The notes beneath the pieces were generated by a model, which did no database searches, had not been told where the DNA came from, and saw only the letters and a program-made list of their open reading frames with translations. From NCBI RefSeq assembly GCF_037902255.1, contig NZ_CP147990.1:3540001-3572000 (forward strand): 32,000 nucleotides of DNA, written 5' to 3'. Of the stretch, positions 5,605-24,477 are shown in pieces. Origin of the DNA: Candidatus Electrothrix sp. GW3-4 (GTDB taxonomy: Bacteria > Desulfobacterota > Desulfobulbia > Desulfobulbales > Desulfobulbaceae). The translations under genes and the position numbers were made by a program. Each line of letters starts with the position of its first letter. The stretch's first letter is position 1.

Positions 5605-5654
5605 GAGCACATCCTCCCCTATTGATAAAAATTGTTCTGCTCTTTCCTGGATAC

Positions 5655-5728
5655 AGTATGAACGATGATCATGACGGACTTTCAGCAGGATGATGACGTG
5701 TCTTAAAAAAAAAATGACAGTCTGTGAC
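5655..5728 (-). promoter_or_regulatory. Candidate activator-dependent promoter of the substrate-sortase operon (pho-box-like direct repeats)
   Basis: On the plus strand ATGAC occurs at 5671, 5693 and 5714 and GTGAC at 5724 (spacings 22, 21, 10). agtatg at 5655-5660 (CATACT on the coding strand) lies 10 nt from the proximal box. The distal pair reads TTGTCACAGACTGTCAT on the coding strand. Confidence 0.5.
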
Positions 5729-5893
5729 AAGTGGCTCCTACCTATAAAAAAGGATGTCTTCCTGAAGGGAAATATGCTACTCAATAAGTATAGGGTTATA
5801 ACAGCGGAAAAATATTCATGGTCTCAAGGGGATATTTCTGCCCCAAAACATAACAGGCTATCATTCTAATACGATTTAAAAAGGAGGAGAGAC

Positions 5894-6376
5894 ATGTTGA
5901 AAAAAGTATCTGTGGGATGTTTCATTGGTGTTATGCTGCTGAACAACGTCCTCTTTGCTCAAGGGGAAGAAATGCCAAAACCAGAAGCAGAGTCGGTTTG
6001 GCAGTATATTACTCAGGAAAAACCCTTCACAGACTGGTCCTTCTGGCCGGATCATCAAGGAACGAACCCCAGTAATGCTCCACATGCCCCAAAGCATAAA
6101 ATATACGTGAACACACAGGCATTGCATTCGAAACAACCGCCACTGCAAGACGGGTCAATGGTGGTAAAGTATAACCTGAGCCCGGCAGATGAGGTGAAGG
6201 CGATAACGCTCATGTACAAGGTAAAGGGATACAACCCTGATGCTGGTGACTGGTTTTGGGTGCAGTACAGCCCGACCGGTGAGGTGTACGAAGCAGGAAA
6301 GCTTGAAAAATGTATAGGTTGCCATGCAGCCAAGTCAGCATCAGACTATATTTTGGTGCATAAGTTCAACAATTGA
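5894..6376 (+). CDS. Secreted mono-heme protein, cytochrome P460-like family
   Basis: RBS AAGGAGGAG. Signal peptide ending VLFAQG. A single CIGCH heme motif near the C-terminus, preceded by DAGDWFWVQYSPTGEVYEAGK, a pattern I associate with P460-type proteins. Confidence 0.65.
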   Translation: MLKKVSVGCFIGVMLLNNVLFAQGEEMPKPEAESVWQYITQEKPFTDWSFWPDHQGTNPSNAPHAPKHKIYVNTQALHSKQPPLQDGSMVVKYNLSPADEVKAITLMYKVKGYNPDAGDWFWVQYSPTGEVYEAGKLEKCIGCHAAKSASDYILVHKFNN

Positions 6377-6394
6377 CATTTTCCAGCAAACCTC

Positions 6395-6459
6395 CTACGC
6401 AGAAGAAATAACAAAAGAATACCAGCCTGTTAAATGAAAGCGTTTTTTCTTCTGCGTAG
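6395..6459. repeat. Perfect 14-bp inverted repeat with a 37-nt spacer downstream of the P460-like gene
   Basis: ctacgcagaagaaa (6395-6408) is the reverse complement of tttcttctgcgtag (6446-6459). No T-run follows, so a terminator role is uncertain. Confidence 0.4.
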
Positions 6460-6588
6460 CTGAACAAAAAATGACCGCATACATAACGTATATAAGCACT
6501 CTGAAATAAAAACAAAATCCGCCCAGAACAACTTCATTGACAATCCTACCTGCCATTTTGTATCATAAAATATTATAAGCTAACGATT

Positions 6589-6687
6589 GATGGTTTCGTA
6601 AAAAATCCAATTTTACGGAAACTCGTACCGTAACTCACTGAGTTGCCGTTGCCTACTTGCTATTTTTCGACTTTTTACCAGATCATC
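6589..6687. mobile_element. MITE-like element, copy A (99 bp, terminal inverted repeats, flanking direct repeat AACGATT)
   Basis: About four-fifths identical by manual alignment to 24281-24378. The left end GATGGTTTCGTAAAAA matches the reverse complement of the right end, GATGATCTGGTAAAAA. AACGATT occurs at 6582-6588 and again at 6688-6694. Confidence 0.65.
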
Positions 6688-6756
6688 AACGATTCGGTCA
6701 AAAAAGATCCGTCCTCCTCTTGGTTCTCGCATAACTCAAACCAGTAACAAGATATT

Positions 6757-7326
6757 ATGACGACTCAAACAGCATCAAAGCAACTATACCTCGAAAAAAG
6801 ATCGTCCCTAGGAGCAGGAGCACTCTGCCTCCTCTTGTCCCTGACTACGACGGGCCCGAGTAACGCAGCAGGAGAGCACCAAGCTGTTGATTCAGCAGCC
6901 ATGACTGCGGCCCATAACCAATGGCGCGCAAAAACAGGTGTTCCCCACCTCAAATGGTCGACAATCTTAGCAGGAAGCGCTCAAGAATGGGCAAAACATC
7001 TGGCGCAAACGGGCTGTAATATGCAACACAGTACAACAGCATATGGCGAAAACATCTTTTGGGCTGGCCCCCTTTCTTCTTCTAACGGAACATCGTCTGT
7101 ACAAGAGATAACCGAGCAAAATGTGGTCGATGCATGGGGTAATGAGGTGCAGTATTATAATTACGCCAACAACAGCTGCCACGGAGTCTGTGGTCATTAC
7201 ACCCAAGTGGTCTGGAAGAGCACAAAGGAAGTGGGCTGCGGCATGGCACTCTGCCCGGATAAAGGGCAAATCTGGGTATGCCAATATAACCCGCAAGGTA
7301 ATCTCATCGGCCAAAAGCCCTATTAA
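6757..7326 (+). CDS. Secreted CAP/SCP/PR-1 domain protein
   Basis: Signal peptide (LCLLLSLTTTGPSNAAG). CAP signatures HNQWRAK, YGENIFW, GHYTQVVWKSTKEVGCG and VCQYNPQGN. Confidence 0.8.
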   Translation: MTTQTASKQLYLEKRSSLGAGALCLLLSLTTTGPSNAAGEHQAVDSAAMTAAHNQWRAKTGVPHLKWSTILAGSAQEWAKHLAQTGCNMQHSTTAYGENIFWAGPLSSSNGTSSVQEITEQNVVDAWGNEVQYYNYANNSCHGVCGHYTQVVWKSTKEVGCGMALCPDKGQIWVCQYNPQGNLIGQKPY

Positions 7327-7454
7327 CTCCTGGTCAGCAGGTAGGAATTTCTTTACACGCCCCATGAATTCCTTTATGGTATCGTATTACTTTGATCTAA
7401 CGAGAGCCTCGCAAATTTTCTCCTGTTAACCCGAAACAGGCTGTAGATATCGCT

Positions 7455-8147
7455 ATGACCTACCGTATTGCCCTTGTCGAAGATGATTCCAGGTTACAGG
7501 CCAATTATGCTCAGGCCCTCCAGCGCGAAGGCTATGACGTGGCCACCTATAGCAGTAAACCCGAGGCCATGTCTGCCTTTGCCCGCTCCCTGCCAGACCT
7601 TGCTATCTTGGACGTCATGCTGGGAGAAGAACTGGCTGGTGGCTTTGACCTCTGCCAGCACCTCCGCTCTTTATCCCCTGTTATACCTATCATTTTCCTT
7701 ACAGCACGCAATTCAGACCTGGATCGGGTCTCTGGCCTCCGACTTGGGGCCTGGGACTACCTGACCAAGGACACAACAACCCTGGACTTTCTGCCCGCCA
7801 GGATATCTGCCATGTTTCGAACCGTTGAGGCCTTACGGAGCAATACAACGGAAAATAAGATCATCCGACATAAGGACCTCCAGATTGACGAGGATCGGAA
7901 GGAGGTCTACTGGAAAAGACATGCGGTCAGCCTGACCCTGACTGAGTTCTGGATCTTGGTTTGCCTTGCCAAGAGACCAGGACATGTCAAAAATCATGAG
8001 CAGTTGATGGAGGCAGCCAGCGTTATTGTGACGAATAATGCGATTGCAGCCCATATCAGAAGAATCAGAGATAAATTTTACGATGTAGATCCTGACTTTA
8101 AGGCTATTCGCTCAGAGTATGGGATGGGGTATCGCTGGCAGCCATGA
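7455..8147 (+). CDS. OmpR/PhoB-family response regulator (dedicated sortase-system regulator type)
   Basis: Receiver domain (IALVEDD, LAILDVMLG, IIFLTAR) and a winged-helix output domain (LTLTEFWILVCLAKRPGHV, YGMGYRW). It is linked to the sortase and its substrate. Confidence 0.85.
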   Translation: MTYRIALVEDDSRLQANYAQALQREGYDVATYSSKPEAMSAFARSLPDLAILDVMLGEELAGGFDLCQHLRSLSPVIPIIFLTARNSDLDRVSGLRLGAWDYLTKDTTTLDFLPARISAMFRTVEALRSNTTENKIIRHKDLQIDEDRKEVYWKRHAVSLTLTEFWILVCLAKRPGHVKNHEQLMEAASVIVTNNAIAAHIRRIRDKFYDVDPDFKAIRSEYGMGYRWQP

Positions 8148-8209
8148 GAGCGCCAGCTATTGGTAAGCACATGACCATATTTTTCTTTACTCCCTTGACA
8201 TAAAACGCC

Positions 8210-10357
8210 ATGCGTTTTTCTCTGCGCCTCAAGCTTGCCCTCCTCTCCCTTCTGCTCCTTCTCTTCCCCTTACTGGGGATGCGCCTGAACAATACCTTAA
8301 AAAACAGCCTGATCATCAGTCAGCAGGATACCCTCAGCCTTACTGCCCAAGCGGTTTCAGCGGCATTAACCGACCGAAACGACCTCTTTGACAGAGAACA
8401 GTTTCACGGCCTCAATCAGGACCGGGATCTCTATCTCTTCCAGCTCAGCAATACCATACAATTAGATGGCAATTTGGACGATTGGCGTCCCGAACTTGCT
8501 GAAGCTGAAGAATTTGGTCGTGAGCATCTCATCAGTTCAGAAGGCAGCTATGTTCTCCAATCCCTTAATTTCCGCCATCTTGCTGGCAAGCAGGACAAGT
8601 ACCTGTACGCACTCTTTGATGTACAGGACGATCATGTCATTTATCGAAGCAAAAACTCATTACGCCTTGACCGTTCTGATCATTTACAAATAGTGATAGG
8701 TGATGATAACGGACAGAGAAAATATCTGATCACAGCCCATGAGCAAGGCTGGGTGAATGGTTTTCTCATGCCTGATGTTCCGATTAAATTTCCTGTCATC
8801 GAACAACGAATTCAAGGGGTATGGAATCAAACCGACAGCGGCTATATCCTGGAAATTCGTATTCCTCTGGAGCTGCTCGGAAACAAACTTGCCTTCACAG
8901 TCGCTGATGTCGATGACATTGAAACAAGAGATATCAAGGCGTTAATAGGCACTTCCAACTTAAAGGAAGACAAGGCTCCGGGCCTGCTCCTCACGACCTC
9001 AACTCCCATTGAAGATATACTGAAATCTCTTGATCGCCCCTATGCACGTATTCGCATTGTCGATCGCAATCAAAGGGTGAGAGCTCAGGTCGGCAGCCTG
9101 CGTACCTCTGAAATACCTCAAGAACAGGTGAGCACACTCTCTCGTCGCATAAACGAATTCATGCGCCCTCTCTATCGTTTTTTTATCAATCCTTTTTTAG
9201 CGGAATTTCAGGATCAGGCCTCCCAACCAACGGAATTGGACCTGCAAGGAATCCGAGAGGGACTTGCTGGCAAACATTCTGTAACCAGCTACTTAATGGA
9301 AGATGGGCAAGTGAAGGTAATGGCGGCCATTACGCCTTTATATGAGCAGGACCAGGTCATTGGTGCCGTGGTTGTAGAGCAGACCACCAACTCGATTCTT
9401 TCACTCAGCAACCGCTTAATCGAAGAAACCATTTCCCTCTCTGTTATTGCCTTTCTCTTTGGTGGTTGCGTCCTGCTCTTTTTCGCCTTTCGGATCTCCG
9501 CACGGATTCGGCGTTTACGCGATCAGGCGGCCTCGGCAATCACGCCTGACGGTCGGATCCTCAACACCATTCACAGGGATTCAGCAAGTGATGAAATCGC
9601 TGATTTAGGCCGCACCTTAGATTCCATGCTCACCCAGCTCCAGCAGCAGATTGAGCATCGCGAGCAAATGGCTGATAACCTTGAGCACGAAATGCGAACG
9701 CCCTTAGCTGGCATTGCCGCATCAGTAAAAAATCTTCGTCAGGAACAGCTTGAGGCAAAACCATCTGGTCGTATTATGGAGTATATTCAGTGGGTAAAAC
9801 GAGATGTTCAGCGATTGGAAGAGCTTCTCACCTCAATTCGGGAGGCCACTACCTTGAAGAATGCCCTGCTACTGGACAGTATGGAGGTGTTTGATCTTGG
9901 CAGGGCCGTATCAGTATGGCTTGAGCACGGTTGGCGACCTGCCTTTAGTGAGGTAGAGATCCTTTATCAGGCTCCTGAACATGAGGTGCTGGTCAACGGC
10001 GACCCGGTTCGTTTACGCCAGGCTTTAGATAAGCTTGTCGAAAATGCCGTTTCTTTCCATACAGCGGACACACCAATTGAGCTCTGCTTAGAAAACTATG
10101 ATGACTGTATATCTCTGCTCGTTATCAATCAAGGCCCAATTATCGAACCAGAGATGCAGCAGCAAATATTTCACTCGATGATCTCCAATCGAGCGATCAA
10201 AGATAAGTCACCCCACCTGGGCCTTGGCCTATATATTGTTCGTACGGTGCTGGACCATCATGATGGGCAGGTGAGTGTTGAAAACCTGTCTGACGGGAGA
10301 ACAGGAGTTGTTTTTACGATTACGCTGCCCAGTACATCAGAGAATGAGCCTTTATAA
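8210..10357 (+). CDS. Sensor histidine kinase with a large periplasmic domain (dedicated sortase-system kinase type)
   Basis: N-terminal TM LALLSLLLLLFPLLG, a ~380-aa periplasmic region (LDGNLDDWRPE, DHLQIVIGDDNG), and a second TM ISLSVIAFLFGGCVLLFFAF. H-box LEHEMRTPLAG. ATPase boxes ENAVSF and HLGLGLYIV. Confidence 0.85.
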   Translation: MRFSLRLKLALLSLLLLLFPLLGMRLNNTLKNSLIISQQDTLSLTAQAVSAALTDRNDLFDREQFHGLNQDRDLYLFQLSNTIQLDGNLDDWRPELAEAEEFGREHLISSEGSYVLQSLNFRHLAGKQDKYLYALFDVQDDHVIYRSKNSLRLDRSDHLQIVIGDDNGQRKYLITAHEQGWVNGFLMPDVPIKFPVIEQRIQGVWNQTDSGYILEIRIPLELLGNKLAFTVADVDDIETRDIKALIGTSNLKEDKAPGLLLTTSTPIEDILKSLDRPYARIRIVDRNQRVRAQVGSLRTSEIPQEQVSTLSRRINEFMRPLYRFFINPFLAEFQDQASQPTELDLQGIREGLAGKHSVTSYLMEDGQVKVMAAITPLYEQDQVIGAVVVEQTTNSILSLSNRLIEETISLSVIAFLFGGCVLLFFAFRISARIRRLRDQAASAITPDGRILNTIHRDSASDEIADLGRTLDSMLTQLQQQIEHREQMADNLEHEMRTPLAGIAASVKNLRQEQLEAKPSGRIMEYIQWVKRDVQRLEELLTSIREATTLKNALLLDSMEVFDLGRAVSVWLEHGWRPAFSEVEILYQAPEHEVLVNGDPVRLRQALDKLVENAVSFHTADTPIELCLENYDDCISLLVINQGPIIEPEMQQQIFHSMISNRAIKDKSPHLGLGLYIVRTVLDHHDGQVSVENLSDGRTGVVFTITLPSTSENEPL

Positions 10358-10436
10358 AAATTTAAGCAAAAATTTCAGGCTCCCATGAAGATGGTCGCCA
10401 AACGAATCGGCTCAACGGTTGTTTGCAAACAAAAAA

Positions 10437-10463
10437 AGCCAAGGACCTTGTCCTTGGCTTTTA
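10437..10463. terminator. Bidirectional rho-independent terminator
   Basis: agccaaggac (10437-10446) pairs with gtccttggct (10450-10459) across a 3-nt loop. An A-run precedes it and TTTT follows. It lies between convergent genes. Confidence 0.7.
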
Positions 10464-10490
10464 TGTTCTCAGGAACTTCTACTTAAAATT

Positions 10491-11765
10491 CTAGTAAATC
10501 CCCAAGGCCTCTACAGTCTCTTTTGTCAGTCCGCCCCCCTGAGCAAGTCCATTTTCACCCTGAAAAGCTCGAATAGCCTCATTGGTTGCCGGATTCAGCT
10601 TTCCATCAATCAGGCCGTTGTAAAAACCCAGCTGGCTTAAGGCTGTCTGTACCTGACGGATAGTTGAGTCAACAAGTTCGTCCTTACACAGTGCTGGCTT
10701 CCAGACTATCCTGGAATCGCTCACTTTAACCTTTTTAACAATGGTCTTGTACTCAGCAGGAACTGAAATAATATTCTCTTCTGCCGGTTTGACGAGTTTC
10801 TTTACCTTGACCGTTTTGTACTCAGGAGGAACAGGGACAGTACGTGACTGGGCCGGAGCGACCATTACTTTCTTCCTGATCATCTGGGTGACCGCAGGTA
10901 TGGTGACGACCTCCGTTCTCGCCGGAGCAACCATTACCTGCTTACGTACAGTTCCATATTCTGCTGGTATGGTGACGATTTCTGTCCTGGCAGGCTCAAC
11001 AACAACCCTTTTCCGAACAGTCTTGTATTCAGCAGGAATAACAACTTCCTGGCGGCATCCACCGATTTCACCTGCACAGTCTTTCGGTACTTTCTTGATC
11101 ACCGTCTTGTACATGGCTGGAACAGCTACGTAACATAGAGTATCACAGTCGGTCAACCCCATCTTAATATCTTCTGGTGAACAATGGGTGGTCTTTTTAA
11201 TCCATTTTGCAGAAGGTGCCTTAACCAAAACCTGCTCTTTCACCTCCTCATAACCAGGATCAGTGATGGTGATGGTGACAACTTCAGGAGAAACCATCAC
11301 CTGCTCATCTACCCATTCATACCGGGCAGGGATAGATTGCAGCTCCTCAGAAGCCTCCTTGATCACGACCTGTTCATCACGCCATTCATACTGGGCAGGA
11401 ATGACGTTAATCTCTTCTGAACCTTCTTTGATAACGACCTCTTCATCCCTCCACTCAAACTGGGCAGGAATTGTCTCAATCTTCTCAGAAGCTTCTTTAG
11501 CGATAACCCGTTCGTCAATCCATTCATACTCAGCCGGGATAATTTCTGTTCGTTCCATAGCTGGTGCAATCTCAATTTCTTCCTCTACATCCTCATAGAC
11601 AGCAGGAGCAAGACAACGAGAGTAACACTCACCAGGCTGAACATTGGCCGGGAATCCCTCATTAATGAATTGAGCCGGATCAATCTGACCATACTGAGCA
11701 GCTGCGGGTGAAGATACCGCGAAGAGCAAAGCGGCAGCTACCACGAAATTCCTTTTCTTCAACAT
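10491..11765 (-). CDS. Secreted repeat protein (about eleven ~23-aa xPAxY repeats, Cys-rich centre) with a C-terminal PG_binding_1-type domain; paralog 2
   Basis: I prefer the start MLKKRNFVVAAALLFAVSSPAAAQ at 11765 because the track extension runs into the intergenic hairpin. Repeats include IPAEYEWIDERVIAKEASEKIET and IPAEYKTVRKRVVVEPARTEIVT. C-terminus LSQLGFYNGLIDGKLNPATNEAIRAFQGENGL. Confidence 0.75.
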   Translation of the reverse strand: MLKKRNFVVAAALLFAVSSPAAAQYGQIDPAQFINEGFPANVQPGECYSRCLAPAVYEDVEEEIEIAPAMERTEIIPAEYEWIDERVIAKEASEKIETIPAQFEWRDEEVVIKEGSEEINVIPAQYEWRDEQVVIKEASEELQSIPARYEWVDEQVMVSPEVVTITITDPGYEEVKEQVLVKAPSAKWIKKTTHCSPEDIKMGLTDCDTLCYVAVPAMYKTVIKKVPKDCAGEIGGCRQEVVIPAEYKTVRKRVVVEPARTEIVTIPAEYGTVRKQVMVAPARTEVVTIPAVTQMIRKKVMVAPAQSRTVPVPPEYKTVKVKKLVKPAEENIISVPAEYKTIVKKVKVSDSRIVWKPALCKDELVDSTIRQVQTALSQLGFYNGLIDGKLNPATNEAIRAFQGENGLAQGGGLTKETVEALGIY

Positions 11766-11826
11766 TTCTTCTTTTTCCCTTTTTCTGATACGTATTCTCG
11801 GGTTATACGGTGTAAAAACAGAAAGA

Positions 11827-11845
11827 GGCACTTAAAAAAGTGCCC
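11827..11845 (-). terminator. Intergenic hairpin between the two paralogs
   Basis: ggcactt (11827-11833) pairs with aagtgcc (11839-11845) across a 5-nt A loop. T-rich sequence follows on both strands. Confidence 0.4.
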
Positions 11846-11872
11846 CTTTTTTCTTCTTTGTTGTCTAATCGA

Positions 11873-13279
11873 CTAGTAGATTCCTAAAGACTCAAGCGTT
11901 TCGATGGTCATCCCACCACCCTGCGGTAAGGCACGATCTGCCTGATAGGCTCTCAGTGCCTCATTGGTCTCCGGGGTCAGGACACCATTAATCTCACCAG
12001 CGTAAAAGCCTTCTCGACTCAAAGCACTTTGCATTTCTCTGATCTTCGAATCAACGGCTTCATCCTCACAAAGAGCCGGACGCCATACGATCTTACTATC
12101 GCTAACTTTAACTTTTTTGATAATAGTCTTGTATTCGGCAGGAACCTGAATAACGTTTTCCTCAGCCGCTTTCACAAGCTTTTTCACCTTGACTGTCTTG
12201 TACTCAGCAGGAACCGGGATAACCTCTGTTCTGGCAGGCTCAACCATTACCCTCTTCCGTACCATTCTGTACTCAGCAGGTATATTAACGACTTCTGTCC
12301 TGGCAGGCTCAACCAAAACCTGCTTGCGTACCATTCTGTACTCAGCAGGAATCTGAACCGTTTCGGTCCTTGCGGGCTCTACCACAACCTTTGTTCTGAT
12401 CGGCTTGTATTCTGCCGGGATGACCACTTCCTGACGGCATCCGTCAACTCCACCAGCACAGTCCGTGGGTACCTTTTTGATAACCGTCTTATACATAGCC
12501 GGGACGGCTACATAACAAAGGGTATCACAGTCGGTCAGTCCCATCTTGATATCTTCAGGAGAGCAATGCGTCGCTTTTTTAATCCACTTTGCAGAAGGCG
12601 CCTTGACCAAAACCTGCTCTTTCACCTCTTGAAAACCGGGATCGGTCAGAGTAATCTTGACCATCTCAGGAGAAACCATAACCTGGCCTTCACGCCAAGC
12701 ATAAACTGCGGGAATAGCTTTAAGCTCTTCGGAAGCCTCTTTTACCACTTCCTGAACATCCTGCCACTCGTACCGGGCAGGAATAACCTTGATCTCCTCT
12801 GACGCCTCTTTTACCAAGACCTCTTCTTCGACCCAATCATATTGTGCAGGAATGACCTTAATCTTTTCAGATGCCTCTTTGGCAATGACCTCTTCATCCA
12901 CCCATTCGTATTCGGCAGGAATGATCTCGGTCCGCTCCATCGCTGGAGCTACCTCAATTTGCTCTTCTACATCTTCAAACACAGCCGGAGCAAGACAGCG
13001 AGAGTAGCACTCACCAGGGTTAACATTGGTCGGCAGCCCTTCACCAAGGTCCTGCTGTGCAACCATTGGCGCAGCAGCAACTGGCCCAGACATCTGCACA
13101 ACATCTTGAGCGACAACCTGCTGGGCAGCCTGTTGCTCTCCTTTTGCCTCTTCACAAGGGCCCTGAACACAGGGCTGTTCACCAGAACCCTGCGGGACAT
13201 AGGCTACGTCCGCCACACAACCAGTTAAGGCAAAAAGAGCGATAGCCCCGATGGCCACGCCATTCTTCATCTGTTTCAT
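11873..13279 (-). CDS. Lipoprotein repeat protein (same xPAxY repeat architecture) with a C-terminal PG_binding_1-type domain; paralog 1
   Basis: RBS AAGGAGAGG. Lipobox LFALTGC. A Q/A-rich linker, then acidic repeats (IPAEYEWVDEEVIAKEASEKIKV), then basic repeats (IPAEYRMVRKQVLVEPARTEVVN). C-terminus LSREGFYAGEINGVLTPETNEALRAYQ. Confidence 0.8.
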   Translation of the reverse strand: MKQMKNGVAIGAIALFALTGCVADVAYVPQGSGEQPCVQGPCEEAKGEQQAAQQVVAQDVVQMSGPVAAAPMVAQQDLGEGLPTNVNPGECYSRCLAPAVFEDVEEQIEVAPAMERTEIIPAEYEWVDEEVIAKEASEKIKVIPAQYDWVEEEVLVKEASEEIKVIPARYEWQDVQEVVKEASEELKAIPAVYAWREGQVMVSPEMVKITLTDPGFQEVKEQVLVKAPSAKWIKKATHCSPEDIKMGLTDCDTLCYVAVPAMYKTVIKKVPTDCAGGVDGCRQEVVIPAEYKPIRTKVVVEPARTETVQIPAEYRMVRKQVLVEPARTEVVNIPAEYRMVRKRVMVEPARTEVIPVPAEYKTVKVKKLVKAAEENVIQVPAEYKTIIKKVKVSDSKIVWRPALCEDEAVDSKIREMQSALSREGFYAGEINGVLTPETNEALRAYQADRALPQGGGMTIETLESLGIY

Positions 13280-19136: not shown

Positions 19137-19213
19137 GCGCCTGTAGCTCATCTGGATAGAGTATCGGACTACGAATCCGAGGGTAGCAGGTTCGAATCCT
19201 GCCAGGCGCACCA
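19137..19213 (+). tRNA. tRNA-Arg (anticodon ACG), CCA encoded
   Basis: Acceptor stem GCGCCTG/CAGGCGC. Anticodon arm tcgga-CTACGAA-tccga. T arm GCAGG-TTCGAAT-CCTGC. 3' ACCA. Confidence 0.9.
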
Positions 19214-19376: not shown

Positions 19377-19826
19377 ATGAAGATTGTCTGCAAAAACAAG
19401 AAGGCCTTTCATGATTATCATATCGATAAGACCATGGAAGCAGGCATGGTCTTGACCGGACCAGAGGTCAAGTCGTTGCGAGCAGGCCGGGCCAATATTA
19501 AGGATGGCTATGCCCAGCTCAAGAACGGTGAAGTCTTTTTGTACAATATTCATATTTCGCCCTATGCCTTTACCAGCCACTCAGCCACAGACCCACTGCG
19601 AGTGCGTAAGATCCTGTTGCACAAGCGGGAAATACGAAAACTGATCGGCAAGCTGAATGAAAAAGGGGTTGCGCTTATTCCGCTCAAGATATATTTTATT
19701 AATAATGGAAAGGCCAAGATTGAACTTGGCCTGGCTCGCGGCAAGAAGCTCTACGATAAACGAGCCGCTTTAAAAGAAAAGCAATCAAAGCGTGATGTTC
19801 AACGATCATTGCGCCAGCAAGACTAA
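19377..19826 (+). CDS. smpB: SsrA-binding protein
   Basis: [27 protein letters not shown] and a basic C-terminal tail. It lies directly upstream of ssrA. Confidence 0.95.
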
Positions 19827-19831
19827 TACAT

Positions 19832-20193
19832 GGGGGTGAAACGGATTCGACGGGGATATGAAAGCTCAACGTTGCATGCCGAGTGTTCTGTCAGCTCGTA
19901 AACTTGATGGAATCTTAAATATAATCGCTGACGATTATAACTACGCAATGGCAGCGTAAGCTGCTTTGCCGCTTTCCCGGTCCGCGCCCGTAAGGCCGGT
20001 GTAAAGCGTCGACTCTTCGGGCTGGTCTCACCGATGTGCCTCTCATCGGAAAGACGAGAACTTAACAGGCTGGTATTCAGCAATCCCCTGTTCCGGGTGA
20101 GAGCTGGATACGAGATTTTTACCCGGAACTAAGCATGTAGATACGTGAGGGGAGTATTTTCGGACCCGGGTTCAACTCCCGGCACCTCCACCA
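19832..20193 (+). ncRNA. ssrA: tmRNA (one-piece), tag peptide ADDYNYAMAA
   Basis: 5' GGGGGUGAAACGGAUUCGACGGGG. Tag ORF gct gac gat tat aac tac gca atg gca gcg at 19927-19956, then taa at 19957-19959. 3' GGACCCGGGUUCAACUCCCGGCACCUCCACCA. Acceptor pairing is GGGGGUG/CACCUCC with a G-U at position 3. Confidence 0.95.
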
Positions 20194-20238: not shown

Positions 20239-20383
20239 GTGTGCCTTTCCTTCTTTTTTCTTTTTTACAATTATTGTAATGGACTATAGCGGATTTGAGG
20301 TAAACTCCCGATAAGGTCTTCCATCATATATGCGGCCTTTGGAAAAACAACTCACACTCGTACAGAGGAAATCAGGCGATCAA

Positions 20384-20625
20384 TTTTAAAAAGCAGCCGT
20401 TCATCTTTTAAAGATCAGCCACTACTTTTTAAAAGCGGGTGTTGGATTTTAAAAGGTGAGAGGTCTCCTTTTAAAGGTCAGGTCTCAACTTTTAAAACTC
20501 AGGCGGCACCTTTAAAAGGTATGCTCTCATCTTTTCAAGGAGGGCTATGGGAATTAAAAGGTGACGCCTCGCCTTTTAAAGATGGGGCATGGGAATTAAA
20601 AGGCGGGCGGATGGTTAAAAAAAAA
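20384..20625. repeat. Array of 12 phased repeats (~21-bp period) with a (CC)TTTTAAAA(GG) palindromic core
   Basis: T/A core centres lie at about 20387, 20409, 20430, 20450, 20472, 20493, 20513, 20535 (degenerate), 20555, 20577, 20597 and 20616. Spacings are 19-22 bp. atgggaattaaaagg recurs exactly 42 bp apart. No ORF is present. Confidence 0.8.
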
Positions 20626-21167
20626 GACCGGTCGTCTTGTCATCAGAAGCCAGCGACAAAAAGAAAAGGAGAGACATATTTTGAGTAAGAGCGTACTGAA
20701 TTATTGCAGAAAGCAAACGAGATAAAGAAGGCACTGTTGACCTGCTCAAGGGAGTAACTCAGAGGCCGCCGGGAAGGTCAGGTCATTAATGGGAGCTGGC
20801 GAGCTTGGTGGTTTCTGAACACTTGCACACCAGTTGTCTTTAAGATTCGAACCTGTAACCCCGACCGTTAACCCGCATCACTGCGCGGTCTGAAAATGGG
20901 CTGTGATACCGGGAAGGATACATTCTTTCATTACAACAGCCAGTTTATCCTTGCCTTATGAATGTTCTTATGTTTATCAATTGTATTAGTCAGAACTGAT
21001 TAAGTTTCCATGTTATCAATAGATAACCGTTGATATCCTGGAAAAGCAAAAAAGAAATCAATAAACTGGAAATATTTTTCCAGTTTTCTCGCTTAATACG
21101 TAATAGCCTGGAAAGTTGGTCCATATATAGGGTAATACCCTATCCCGATTCCAGGTTATCCACACTG

Positions 21168-22368
21168 TTAGAGCAAGGATATTCTGAGCCATGGACTTTA
21201 ATACAGTAAGCACATTTCAGAGGCTAGGTGTTCCCCCTAATGTAATTAACACGGTTTTGGTAATCATAATCGTTCTTCTTCTCGCACCTTATGTAGGCGG
21301 GACCGATTTTGGGGTTTTTAAAGTACCAGATTTTCCGCCAACAATAGAGTATCTGCTCAAGTGGATCGGGCCGTTTCTATTGTTGGTATTTGTAATTCTA
21401 TTTATACCTGCATGGAAAACTAATAAAGTCGAAATCGGAGCAGAAAAAAAAGATCAGCCAAACGCGGTACATTCGAAGTCTAAGTACAGGCTGCAAAGTA
21501 CTCCAGATATCATTTTAAATGAGCTCCACAGGCAAAATGTTAACACAGGCGGAATTAGAATTATTCCAGGAATCAATATCCATGACCTTAAAAAGCGCAT
21601 TAAAATATTAAACACACAGCTATCTGACGAAAGAATAAATCAATTAGTGGAATCTGCACGTGAAACTGCTTTTACATCCAAGTATGCCGCACCTAAAGAA
21701 GATGAGAAATTAGTAAGTATTACAGAATTGAAGGTTCAAGGAATTCAGGAATGGCACATTTATTTAGAACAATTTTTGTCCAGACTGGGGGTTCCTGATA
21801 TCAAGAACATTGATGTGTTAGATGTGGGTATCGGTAACGCCTATGCGTCGCAAGTATTTTTGGGTAGCTGCGCGAGTTTAACTGGCGTAGATATCTCTCA
21901 TGAGGCGATAACATACGCCAAAAATAAGCTACCTAATGCGGTGTTCAAAATCGGGGGTGCAGAGGATTTAAAAGAAATTGAATCATTTTCGATGGATTTA
22001 TATATATCACTAAGAACATATCAATCGACACTCTTTGATATCAAAGAATCCCTTCATGAGGCATATAGGGTATTAGCAAAAGGTGGAGGACTAGTAGTTT
22101 CCATCCCAAACATGTTTCTTAAAAAAAATGACTCAGGAAAGATCATAGGTGTTTTGTATGGTCTTATACCTCCAGGATCAACCGCACCTAGTGTTGAGTT
22201 TGCAATGCAAATTTCGGAAAAGATTCAAGAATACATGAATTTATTAGGCTTCAAAGACGTCGAACTGTACAAGGAATCGCCGTTCGAAATATTCATTGGC
22301 GCTAGAAAATAAAGCTCTAACACGGCGCTCAAGCGGATGCTCCTGACGTCGCACCGCTTAGCTTGGCG
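21168..22368 (+). mobile_element. Integron-type gene cassette (single ORF plus attC) with no integrase in the window
   Basis: The upstream core G|TTAGAG (21167-21173) is the exact complement of the R'' box CTCTAAC of the attC at the 3' end. This is as expected for one cassette bounded by G|TT crossover points. Confidence 0.6.
21191..22312 (+). CDS. Membrane-anchored class I SAM-dependent methyltransferase (cassette ORF)
   Basis: Two N-terminal TM helices (VINTVLVIIIVLLLAPYV, FLLLVFVILFIPAW). SAM motif I VLDVGIGNAYAS, acidic loop GVDIS, and AKGGGLVVSIPN. Confidence 0.7.
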   Translation: MDFNTVSTFQRLGVPPNVINTVLVIIIVLLLAPYVGGTDFGVFKVPDFPPTIEYLLKWIGPFLLLVFVILFIPAWKTNKVEIGAEKKDQPNAVHSKSKYRLQSTPDIILNELHRQNVNTGGIRIIPGINIHDLKKRIKILNTQLSDERINQLVESARETAFTSKYAAPKEDEKLVSITELKVQGIQEWHIYLEQFLSRLGVPDIKNIDVLDVGIGNAYASQVFLGSCASLTGVDISHEAITYAKNKLPNAVFKIGGAEDLKEIESFSMDLYISLRTYQSTLFDIKESLHEAYRVLAKGGGLVVSIPNMFLKKNDSGKIIGVLYGLIPPGSTAPSVEFAMQISEKIQEYMNLLGFKDVELYKESPFEIFIGARK

Positions 22369-22374
22369 TTAGTC
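22315..22374 (+). other. attC (59-base-element) recombination site, 60 bp
   Basis: R'' CTCTAAC, 6 nt, L'' CTCAAGC, 21 nt, L' GCTTAGC, 5 nt, R' GTTAGTC. The folded form gives a 5-bp R box, an unpaired central spacer, and a 9-bp L stem (G13-C48 to G22-C40) with an extrahelical C16. It begins 3 nt after the stop codon. Confidence 0.65.
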
Positions 22375-22492
22375 GCATAAGAGATTTTATATTAAATTCG
22401 ATTTCCTACCAGGCTCGACACAAAACACCTCATCACACTTTTCCTTTTCTTAACGACCTCAATTTCACCGGCCCGGTGCCTGCATTCAGGTA

Positions 22493-22520
22493 TTGACAAT
22501 ACAGCCCCTTAATGTACTAT
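22493..22520 (+). promoter_or_regulatory. Sigma70-type promoter candidate
   Basis: TTGACA (22493-22498), a 16-nt spacer, then TACTAT (22515-22520). It lies about 77 nt upstream of ATG 22597. Confidence 0.4.
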
Positions 22521-22596
22521 ATTTGTAATCGTGCCCGATCCCCAGTTACAGACATGATTTGTATCACGGTCAGGCCTTCTTGTTTTCGGTGTCCTC

Positions 22597-23280
22597 ATGC
22601 CTTCCCCGCCTCTTATCAAACCCCATTTAGAATACCCTCTTGTTGCCCGTCTCAAAGAACGGGGGATGATCATTCCCGATGAAGCAAGGGCAATCCGCAA
22701 GCTGTCTCAAATAGGATACTACCGGTTAAGCGGCTTCAGCTATCCGTGCAGCCGTCCCAGATTTGACTATGGGGTCCACTTTAATGCTCTTAACTCAGAT
22801 AAAGATGACATTATAACGTTGATCTACATGAGGCGGCATTTTGAGCTCACCGATGATAAAGGCGATGCTTATCAAGTGTTGTCGAACCTCTTACACAAAA
22901 GGGAACGGGCCATAGATACTCGAGAACCCAAAGGCACCGGCGAGAACCATCCTGAGATGGAGGGCGGAAAGTTTTCTTCAGGATGCGATCAACTTATAAA
23001 TGTTATGCCCAGTTTTTCATACTCCGACATGTTACATCGAGTTGAAGATAAAGATTCTTTGAAGTCACTTTACGAATCATGCTCTAATGGCTATGAGAAG
23101 CTGCAAGTGTGCCGACTTATTGAACACGAGGAAAACAATGCTGTTGTTGAGAAATCTATCAAGCAGACATATCACATCGAAAATGAATTCATCTGCCAGC
23201 TTGATCTCGCTGAATTTGACACTATTCCAGAATATGTGATCTCCAAATGTGATGCGATTGTTAGTGGAGATTCAGCATGA
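22597..23280 (+). CDS. Hypothetical protein. The first ~50 aa resemble the N-terminus of Abi (Abi_2/AbiD-F-like) proteins and the remainder is unrecognised (possible fusion or remnant).
   Basis: KPHLEYPLVARLKERGMIIPDEARAIRKLSQIGYYRLSGFSYP matches the Abi_2 N-terminal pattern (..RGL.I.D......L..i.YYRLSGY..PF). After about residue 50 the similarity ends. Confidence 0.4.
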   Translation: MPSPPLIKPHLEYPLVARLKERGMIIPDEARAIRKLSQIGYYRLSGFSYPCSRPRFDYGVHFNALNSDKDDIITLIYMRRHFELTDDKGDAYQVLSNLLHKRERAIDTREPKGTGENHPEMEGGKFSSGCDQLINVMPSFSYSDMLHRVEDKDSLKSLYESCSNGYEKLQVCRLIEHEENNAVVEKSIKQTYHIENEFICQLDLAEFDTIPEYVISKCDAIVSGDSA

Positions 23281-23408
23281 CTCACTCTCAATCAACTCTA
23301 AAACAATTTTCACTAAATTTCGGCAAGTTGCCTTCAGTGCATTTCCATGCATTCCGTGGTTCCGAATCCTTTGGTGCCTTCCGTGGTTAAAAATAGAGGA
23401 CTCCAAAA

Positions 23409-24152
23409 ATGTTAGATTTCACGAAACTCGACGAGCTTAAGCAGAAACTTGATTCCTTCCGGCCTCTGCCACCAGAAATTGTTACTAATCTCCATGAGGA
23501 TCTGGTGCTTCGCTGGACCTACCACTCCAATGCCATTGAAGGCAATACGCTAACTCTGAAAGAAACCAAGGTCGCTCTGGAAGGGATCACTATTGGTGGG
23601 AAAAGCATGCGGGAGCATTTTGAAGCGATCAACCACAGAGAAGCCATTTTTTTCGTTGAAGATCTGGTCAAGAAAAATGAGCCCCTGTCTGAATGGCAGA
23701 TCAAATCGATCCACCAGTTGATCCTGAAAAATATTGATAACAAAAATGCGGGGACCTATAGGAAAACAAATGTCATTATCTCTGGTGCCGATCATGTACC
23801 GCCTGATGCTTTGCATGTAGAAAATGATATGCAACATTTTATCAACTGGTATCAAATTGAGGGGACATCTCTTCATCCGGTAGAACGAGCTGCCCGTGTA
23901 CATGCTGATTTTGTGAAAATCCATCCCTTTGTAGACGGCAATGGCAGGACATCACGGCTGCTGATGAATCTGGAATTGACGAAAAGTGGCTTTCCACCGG
24001 TTGTCCTGCCTGTGGAAAATCGACTGGCGTATTACGAGGCTCTGGATAGAGCCCACACGAAAAACGATTATGAACCGTTTTTGATGCTGATTGCGAATAT
24101 TGCGGAATCTGGATTCAAACCTTACTGGCATGCATTGGGGGTCACCCCATGA
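23409..24152 (+). CDS. fic: Fic/DOC family protein (AMPylase-type Fic motif)
   Basis: Core motif HPFVDGNGRTSRLLMN (HxFx[DE]GNGRxxR). N-terminal helical region with SNAIEGNTLT. Confidence 0.9.
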   Translation: MLDFTKLDELKQKLDSFRPLPPEIVTNLHEDLVLRWTYHSNAIEGNTLTLKETKVALEGITIGGKSMREHFEAINHREAIFFVEDLVKKNEPLSEWQIKSIHQLILKNIDNKNAGTYRKTNVIISGADHVPPDALHVENDMQHFINWYQIEGTSLHPVERAARVHADFVKIHPFVDGNGRTSRLLMNLELTKSGFPPVVLPVENRLAYYEALDRAHTKNDYEPFLMLIANIAESGFKPYWHALGVTP

Positions 24153-24450
24153 ATACGCTCCAGATCAACGAAAAGCATCTTTCTCAAATCCCGGCTTTGC
24201 AGCTTTTGATTGGCTTGGGATTTGAATTTTTGACACCAGCTGAAGCCCTACGCGAACGGCAGGATCCAATATCCAATGTTGATGGTTTCGTAAAAAGTCC
24301 AAAATTGCGAAAATCGTATTGTAACTCGCTGAGTTGCCGTTAGCGAATTGCTGTTTTCTGACTTTTTACCAGGCCATCAATGTTTTATTGAAAAGTATTC
24401 TGCGCAACCTCAACCTGCTCCAGGAAATAAAGCGCATTTGTTACAAGGAC
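24149..24450 (+). pseudogene. hsdR: Type I restriction enzyme R-subunit gene, N-terminal stub only, interrupted by a MITE and 3'-deleted
   Basis: MNTLQINEKHLSQIPALQLLIGLGFEFLTPAEALRERQDPISNV, then the element, then (frame +2) LLKSILRNLNLLQEIKRICYKD. The ATGA overlap with the fic stop is typical operon packing. Nothing HsdR-like lies beyond about 24450. Confidence 0.6.
24281..24378. mobile_element. MITE-like element, copy B (98 bp), flanked by the direct repeat AATGTT
   Basis: Homologous to 6589-6687. AATGTT occurs at 24275-24280 and again at 24379-24384. Deleting 24281-24384 fuses the two hsdR fragments in frame. Confidence 0.7.
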
Positions 24451-24477
24451 AGTACGCATCTCTCTAGCGCTGCCTTC

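Follow-up and report, generated by a model that had tools for sequence, protein, structure and literature searches.

A 1201-bp segment of the genome of the cable bacterium Candidatus Electrothrix sp. GW3-4 (closed, 4.64 Mb) is, with a probability of roughly 0.88, a genuine integron-type gene cassette. It consists of a promoterless open reading frame with its own ribosome-binding site followed by an aadA-type attC site, and it stands as a single attC lacking integrase (SALIN) within a defence-type island at positions 21168–22368 (+ strand) of the window, the whole 32,000-nucleotide stretch of DNA that we analysed. On this reading integron cassettes reach cable bacteria (Candidatus Electrothrix), and our literature search found no paper naming both integrons and Electrothrix. 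The locus would also offer a clean natural case of a stranded cassette that has kept an intact attC in a hypervariable defence islet near ssrA.

The cassette runs from the TT of its 5’ boundary core, GTTAGAG (21167–21173, + strand), to the G of R’. The core begins 24 nt upstream of an ATG at 21191, which opens a 373-residue cargo ORF (21191–22312, + strand; WP_339134594.1) ending in a TAA stop at 22310–22312. The 60-nt attC (22315–22374), which we delimited by covariance models, by its fold and by alignment to remnants behind orthologues, begins 2 nt past the stop and lies on the ORF’s own strand. In it R’’ CTCTAAC (22315–22321) is followed by 6 nt (ACGGCG), L’’ CTCAAGC (22328–22334) by 21 nt that include the loop (22341–22350), and L’ GCTTAGC (22356–22362) by 5 nt (TTGGC), with R’ GTTAGTC (22368–22374) closing the site. 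The TTAGAG at 21168–21173 is the exact complement of the cassette’s own R’’ (CTCTAA). The two marks of an integron cassette, an ORF closely followed by an attC and a 5’ TTRRRY complementary to its own R’’, are therefore both present. This arrangement had been proposed in a first-pass annotation made from the letters of the sequence, and every coordinate and motif that it gave for the ORF, the attC boxes and GTTAGAG proved accurate to the base. The cassette has a GC content of ~0.37–0.40 compared to ~0.55 for the core genome. It contains an AAGGA Shine–Dalgarno-like motif at 21175–21179, and a promoter/terminator scan found no sigma-70-like promoter for the cargo ORF; transcription of the cassette would have to start in flanking DNA. 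The heptamer GTTAGAG itself occurs three times on both strands of the window (64 kb of strand), against 3.3 expected by chance, and two of the three occurrences are the two cassette ends.

We asked whether the putative attC is more than a chance arrangement of boxes. A scanner of our own, which combined a regular expression with a stem (AAC...GTT cores, spacers and a bulged L stem), found 9 attC-like layouts in the window against 8.2 in shuffled sequence, and 106 against 118 across 866 kb. The bare R’’/L’’/L’/R’ layout is no better than chance; we rejected the scanner as a test, using it only to pick candidate sites that were later validated with a classical-only model, and therefore built covariance models. 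The first model, R1, comprised 16 environmental attC-like sites from other loci, with their centres trimmed and the window site excluded. Run with filters off, R1 gave one significant match in the window, at 22313–22376 on the + strand (25.1 bits, E = 8e-4, a rough value from a short calibration), and nothing else fell below E = 2.6. The – strand of the attC scored 12.1 bits, 13 bits lower than the + strand, and a positive control, the aadA1 attC beside intI1 on a Salmonella plasmid, scored 31.3 bits. Because some of the sites that seeded R1 are located behind related genes and could have an origin in common with the window site, we built a second model, R2, from seven class-1 integron attCs (estX, psp, aadA2, cmlA1, aadA1, qacL (L111) and dfrA1 (L105)). 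R2 returned the same interval and strand at 37.3 bits (E = 5e-7, equally rough, though with a large margin) as its sole match in the window, the next lying at E = 1.9. This score tops every R2 match in 789 kb of other loci (best 36 bits), where outside cassette contexts the best R2 match reached 16.9 bits and R1 found none at E ≤ 1. R2 also confirmed several of the environmental R1 seed sites as attCs. The site thus scored well above background in the attC model test that the first-pass annotation had set, with significance taken from R1 and R2, built here, rather than from IntegronFinder’s attC_4 model. A scan of the window with Rfam at gathering thresholds reported only tmRNA and tRNA and no attC match.

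The substrate of IntI is the folded bottom strand of attC, with an R box, an unpaired spacer, an L box and an extrahelical G and T. Folded as DNA, the bottom strand of the window site forms a 7-bp R helix, a 3×3 unpaired spacer, an L stem and a 10-nt loop. Within the L stem a G is extrahelical, corresponding to a bulged C22330 on the top strand, and after it comes an extrahelical T, corresponding to a bulged A22337; both bulges occupy consensus positions of classical attCs in the R2 alignment. Five of the seven R-box positions pair directly, and the folded 7-bp helix recruits adjacent bases. R’’ CTCTAAC and R’ GTTAGTC each deviate once from the consensus RYYYAAC and GTTRRRY, and the AAC and GTT are present. 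The fold energy is slightly better than that of shuffled sequences (z = –1.7 and –2.1), modest scores that fit an imperfect palindrome. The fold thus upholds the aadA-type architecture claimed for the site (R box, unpaired spacer, L stem with an extrahelical base), and the aadA1 59-be given for that comparison is exact, with 100% identity in 1962 plasmids. In its sequence and its predicted structure, the window site is an attC.

Neither an integrase nor a second attC accompanies it. A tblastn search with IntI1 found no IntI in the 32-kb window at E ≤ 1e-3, a search by motif and tblastn of the window and 104 loci returned no relevant IntI or other tyrosine recombinase, and neither R1 nor R2, with filters off, matched a second attC in the 32 kb at E ≤ 1. 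These searches bear out the earlier remark that no intI and no second clear attC are visible. A complete integron has intI, attI and Pc beside its cassettes, a combination that is not found in the window, and a CALIN has at least two attCs within ~4 kb without an integrase, where the window has a single one. Since the window holds neither IntI nor a second attC, we assign the locus to the SALINs, defined by one attC next to a CDS, with neither a further att site nor intI nearby (10.1101/2022.09.11.507474); lone cassettes are a category already described under this name.

Orthologues of the cargo gene bear on the cassette boundaries. The protein has full-length relatives at 40–86% identity in very different bacteria, among them Methylomonas sp. 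11b (79%), Zhongshania, Ferrimonas, Sunxiuqinia (Bacteroidota), Saccharimonadales (Patescibacteria) and Bacillota, and the family is, judging from these sequences, widely transferred. On one metagenome contig (L004) an 80%-identical orthologue is preceded by a small ORF and a textbook attC, whose R’ (GTTAGAC) lies 25 nt before the orthologue’s ATG. Nucleotide homology between the window and L004 begins at 21167, the G of GTTAGAG, a point that in L004 is the R’ of the preceding cassette’s attC, and homology to a Methylomonas-type locus (L026) begins at 21165. The 5’ boundary G|TTAGAG put forward in the first-pass annotation therefore coincides with the start of homology to cassette-borne orthologues. 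The window, L004, L026 and L027 all have TTAGA[CG] 17–22 nt upstream of the ATG and lose similarity beyond it, and in L027 a marginal attC-model match (17.7 bits, E = 0.06) ends at the 5’ boundary. The Zhongshania orthologue (L006; NZ_JBLIKC010000014.1, a Zhongshania MAG) shares R’’ CTCTAAC and the upstream GTTAGAG with the window cassette, and its L’’ is related. The orthologue belongs to an array at 5645–12560 with at least five same-strand attCs, which start near 5645, 6911, 11111, 11817 and 12445, and no intI was found within ±10 kb of this array.

On the 3’ side the agreement is partial. The Methylomonas-type loci L002 and L026 carry a recognisable, decayed copy of the window attC. No attC is detectable behind the orthologue in L004, the closest of those carried in arrays, and thus the 3’ boundary is not uniform. 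The cassette is a shared unit on its 5’ side in L004, L026 and L027 and partly so on its 3’ side (in L006, and in decayed form in L026 and L002). Elsewhere the cargo gene family recurs in cassettes, and these share the 5’ boundary. We infer that the crossover took place between G21167 and T21168, and it is consistent with this model that the TTAGTC of R’ belongs to the next unit, as had been suggested.

The cassette had been described as lone and next to ssrA. The first part of this description stands, however direct adjacency does not: the cassette lies ~1 kb away, inside a variable low-GC island (20243–24475) between the ssrA terminator and an SDR gene. The conserved left anchor of the island is ssrA itself (tmRNA; 19832–20193, + strand), upstream of which are smpB (19377–19826, from the ORF list) and a tRNA-Arg gene (19137–19213), the two RNA genes being called by both ARAGORN and Rfam. 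Homology to other Electrothrix ends at 20241/2, past the ssrA terminator (four genomes compared), and homology to Ca. E. aarhusensis picks up again at 24476, where the SDR gene and secB follow. Between these points are 4.2 kb whose GC content is 0.37–0.48 compared to ~0.55 and whose gene content differs in each of the four Electrothrix relatives. In Ca. E. aarhusensis the slot (L108, 11043–19031) holds an intact hsdM-hsdS-fic-hsdR-ygjP set, of which the window retains fic (23409–24152, with the motif HPFxDGNGR) followed by a 64-residue N-terminal hsdR stub, the whole remnant spanning 23409–24343. As the aarhusensis slot is intact, the window appears to carry the decayed remains of such a type I restriction-modification and Fic islet. 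Another ORF of the island (22597–23280, 227 residues) is a chimera or a fragment: residues 15–64 resemble the N-terminus of AbiD, and residues 63–223 match positions 532–688 of 693 of the PADLOC candidate PDC-S06 (E = 9e-53), that is, its last quarter only. Because island content is wholly different among the relatives, they offer no informative empty-site allele. An empty-site allele, which would read CCACACTG|TTAGTCGCATAAG, was not found in the four Electrothrix genomes or in any of the fetched loci, nor was a precise presence/absence polymorphism of the cassette found in those relatives.

The island has further features that we record in their own right. At 20385–20600 are ~10 units of ~21 nt built on TTTTAAAAG / CTTTTAAA palindromes, and Ca. 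Electrothrix sp. Rat3 has a 70%-identical TTTTAAAAG-type array (L107, 11933–12051); these may be iterons, or may encode a small repeat peptide (ORF 20521–20688, with WELKG repeats). The non-coding segment 22441–22614 is 84% identical to Rat3 L107 12186–12360 on the opposite strand. Besides a promoter-like TTGACA-16-TACTAT (22493–22520), it includes a leader that is conserved and the opening codons of the ORF that follows (MPSPPL / MPSRPL). In Rat3 this conserved segment directly precedes the TTTTAAAAG array, while the window has the two the other way round, with the cassette between them. The island’s right edge has an imperfect inverted repeat of 26 nt (24279–24304 / 24355–24380, 81% complementary, with a 50-nt spacer) that encloses a terminator-like hairpin at 24326–24346. 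A palindrome at ~21108–21156, upstream of GTTAGAG, was considered as a decayed preceding attC and rejected, having no R1 or R2 score and the wrong spacing. An independent short-read assembly of the same organism (SRR28154589; Logan, L106 and L001) is interrupted at ~21026–21142, immediately to the left of the cassette, and at ~24309, where the island ends on the right; hairpins or repeats, or else strain heterogeneity, could be the cause.

How might the cassette have come to lie here? From established integron biology, an integron integrase would at some time have cut it out in circular form, and it would have been joined at a G|TT point. Since the left flank has no attC features, the likeliest route would be that IntI inserted it at a genomic position other than an attC (a secondary or ‘attG’ site), whether in this lineage or already in whatever organism donated the island. 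The cassette would now be stranded, and could probably be remobilised only with IntI supplied in trans.

The most serious alternative accepts the cassette as genuine and proposes that no integrase inserted it here. On this view the cassette would be all that is left of a decayed array, that is, a CALIN or integron remnant, or else it would have come in together with flanking DNA, on a larger fragment exchanged by homologous or illegitimate recombination within the ssrA-linked defence island. We consider this the less probable course, though a credible one. The island is pieced together from truncated genes, such as the PDC-S06 fragment (ORF2) and the 64-residue hsdR, and what it has in common with Electrothrix sp. 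Rat3 is in a different arrangement there. In R’, the half derived from the target (TTAGTC) resembles a cassette start, and no IntI was found in the window. However no attC remnant was detected on either side at E < 10 with filters off, and the cassette’s own attC is intact. A T precedes the left G|TT, where the 3’ ends of attCs almost always have C, and it is because of this base and the featureless left flank that we favour insertion into a non-attC site over a decayed array.

The remaining alternatives deny that the site is an attC at all. One takes the 60-nt palindrome for a hairpin that arose by chance or for a transcription terminator, with the methyltransferase encoded by an ordinary gene of the island; it is close to refuted. 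The loose box layout does arise ~8 times per 32-kb window by chance, the fold z-score is modest and the site lies directly after a stop codon, but these observations are outweighed by the 37.3 bits from the classical attC model, by the strand-specificity of the score and by the orthologues, which carry attCs and place the homology breakpoint at G|TT. The stem, moreover, has no following T-run and was not listed by the terminator scan. Least probable of all is a copy of a non-integron REP or MITE-like palindromic repeat of the genome, to which the other palindromic repeats of the island (20385–20600 and 24279–24380) might point, since a repeat search, R1 and R2 found no second copy in the 32 kb and the best matches of the site are integron attCs of unrelated bacteria.

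The genuine cassette that we favour carries a rare cargo. An AlphaFold (AF2) model of WP_339134594.1 (pLDDT 84) shows two predicted transmembrane helices (residues 16–35 and 50–69), a helical domain (residues ~104–198) and a class I SAM methyltransferase fold (residues 208–372; Pfam PF08241, PF13847, PF13649). A Foldseek fold search of the PDB returned generic small-molecule methyltransferases only, with no specific function. Across 36 homologues the SAM-binding motifs are kept (GxG at 213–215 and D234), and an unusual YxSLRTYQS stretch is invariant. Distant relatives retain the helical-plus-methyltransferase module, covering ~57–88% of the query, and have their N-termini swapped for patatin, PNP_UDP_1, TIR, PF13271 or CMP/dCMP deaminase domains. 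Several of these variant fusions lie directly beside attCs: metagenome contigs L057, L061, L069, L070, L073 and L100 encode a cytidine-deaminase-type (HAE...PCxxC) or PNP-type N-terminus joined to the module, and most of the contigs with such fusions carry flanking attC sites. A search of 1.84 billion proteins with the helical domain alone recovered no more than 19 clusters (50% identity). PADLOC-DB v2 contained no full-length match to the cargo, only a local match to the mad2 methyltransferase domain (E = 1.9e-9, residues 205–315). No relatives were found in viral contigs, and a literature search found no described methyltransferase-plus-effector defence family. The modelled protein is probably an enzyme or sensor that binds SAM and is anchored in the membrane, from a rare family with swapped effector-like N-termini.

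Immune proteins typically carry interchangeable effector-like heads on a constant module. Because the cargo family is built in this way and the cassette lies within an islet of defence type, it is reasonable to propose an anti-phage role, and our best guess is one of the abortive-infection type. The helical-plus-class-I-SAM-methyltransferase module would in that case act as a sensor or regulator, and the killing modules would be interchangeable: two TM helices here, and a patatin phospholipase, a PNP-type nucleosidase, a TIR or a cytidine deaminase in relatives. A wider and distinctly tentative hypothesis is that the family as a whole represents an undescribed group of anti-phage (abortive-infection) systems, each made of a single gene and disseminated for the most part in integron cassettes. 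Rare, repeatedly bounded by attCs and built like modular immune proteins, the family is a cheap candidate for phage-defence screens, and we consider it the part of the finding most worth experiments.

The window site can be compared closely with the aadA1-type attC, the type that dominates R2, with which the site scored 37.3 bits. Both are 60 nt long, have their boxes in the same order and their two bulged bases (top-strand C and A) at the same positions, and share the AAC...GTT cores and the CAAGC / GCTTA L boxes; counted from the two sequences, about two thirds of positions are identical. They differ in the 3’ spacer, which is 5 nt in the window site and 6 nt in the aadA1 type, and in the first base of R’’, a C in place of a purine. 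In contrast to the aadA1-type attC, the window site has no linkage to resistance genes or to intI1.

The surroundings of the cassette resemble tmRNA (ssrA)-linked genomic islands, which likewise consist of a variable low-GC segment right after ssrA that differs by species. The window differs from these in lacking both an island integrase and a convincing direct repeat of the 3’ end of ssrA, and the island looks like a decayed restriction-modification/defence islet rather than an active integrative element. Anti-phage systems carried by integron cassettes have been reported (bioRxiv 10.1101/2024.07.02.601719; Kieffer 2025, Darracq 2025 and Getz 2025, as they are cited in 10.64898/2026.03.17.712381). 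The window cassette is like them in being small and holding a single gene, in the swapping of an effector-like N-terminus among relatives of its cargo, and in its defence-related neighbours (Fic/PDC-S04, the PDC-S06 fragment and the hsdR stub). In contrast to them, its cargo matches no described defence system.

CALINs and sedentary chromosomal arrays hold orthologues of the cargo, as shown by the five or more attCs of L006 and by the attC directly upstream in L004, whereas the window has one attC and a CALIN by definition has at least two. The closest known category is the SALIN, of which 3400 were counted in 2469 of 21,105 RefSeq genomes and explained by IntI-mediated insertion into GWT ‘attG’ sites (10.1101/2022.09.11.507474). 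Like these, the window locus has one ORF and one attC, a left junction that is a bare G|TT in non-attC DNA, and a foreign low-GC cargo. It differs in that it was assigned with R1 and R2, not with IntegronFinder, in that its insertion event is one that we infer, and in its host, a cable bacterium of the Desulfobulbaceae.
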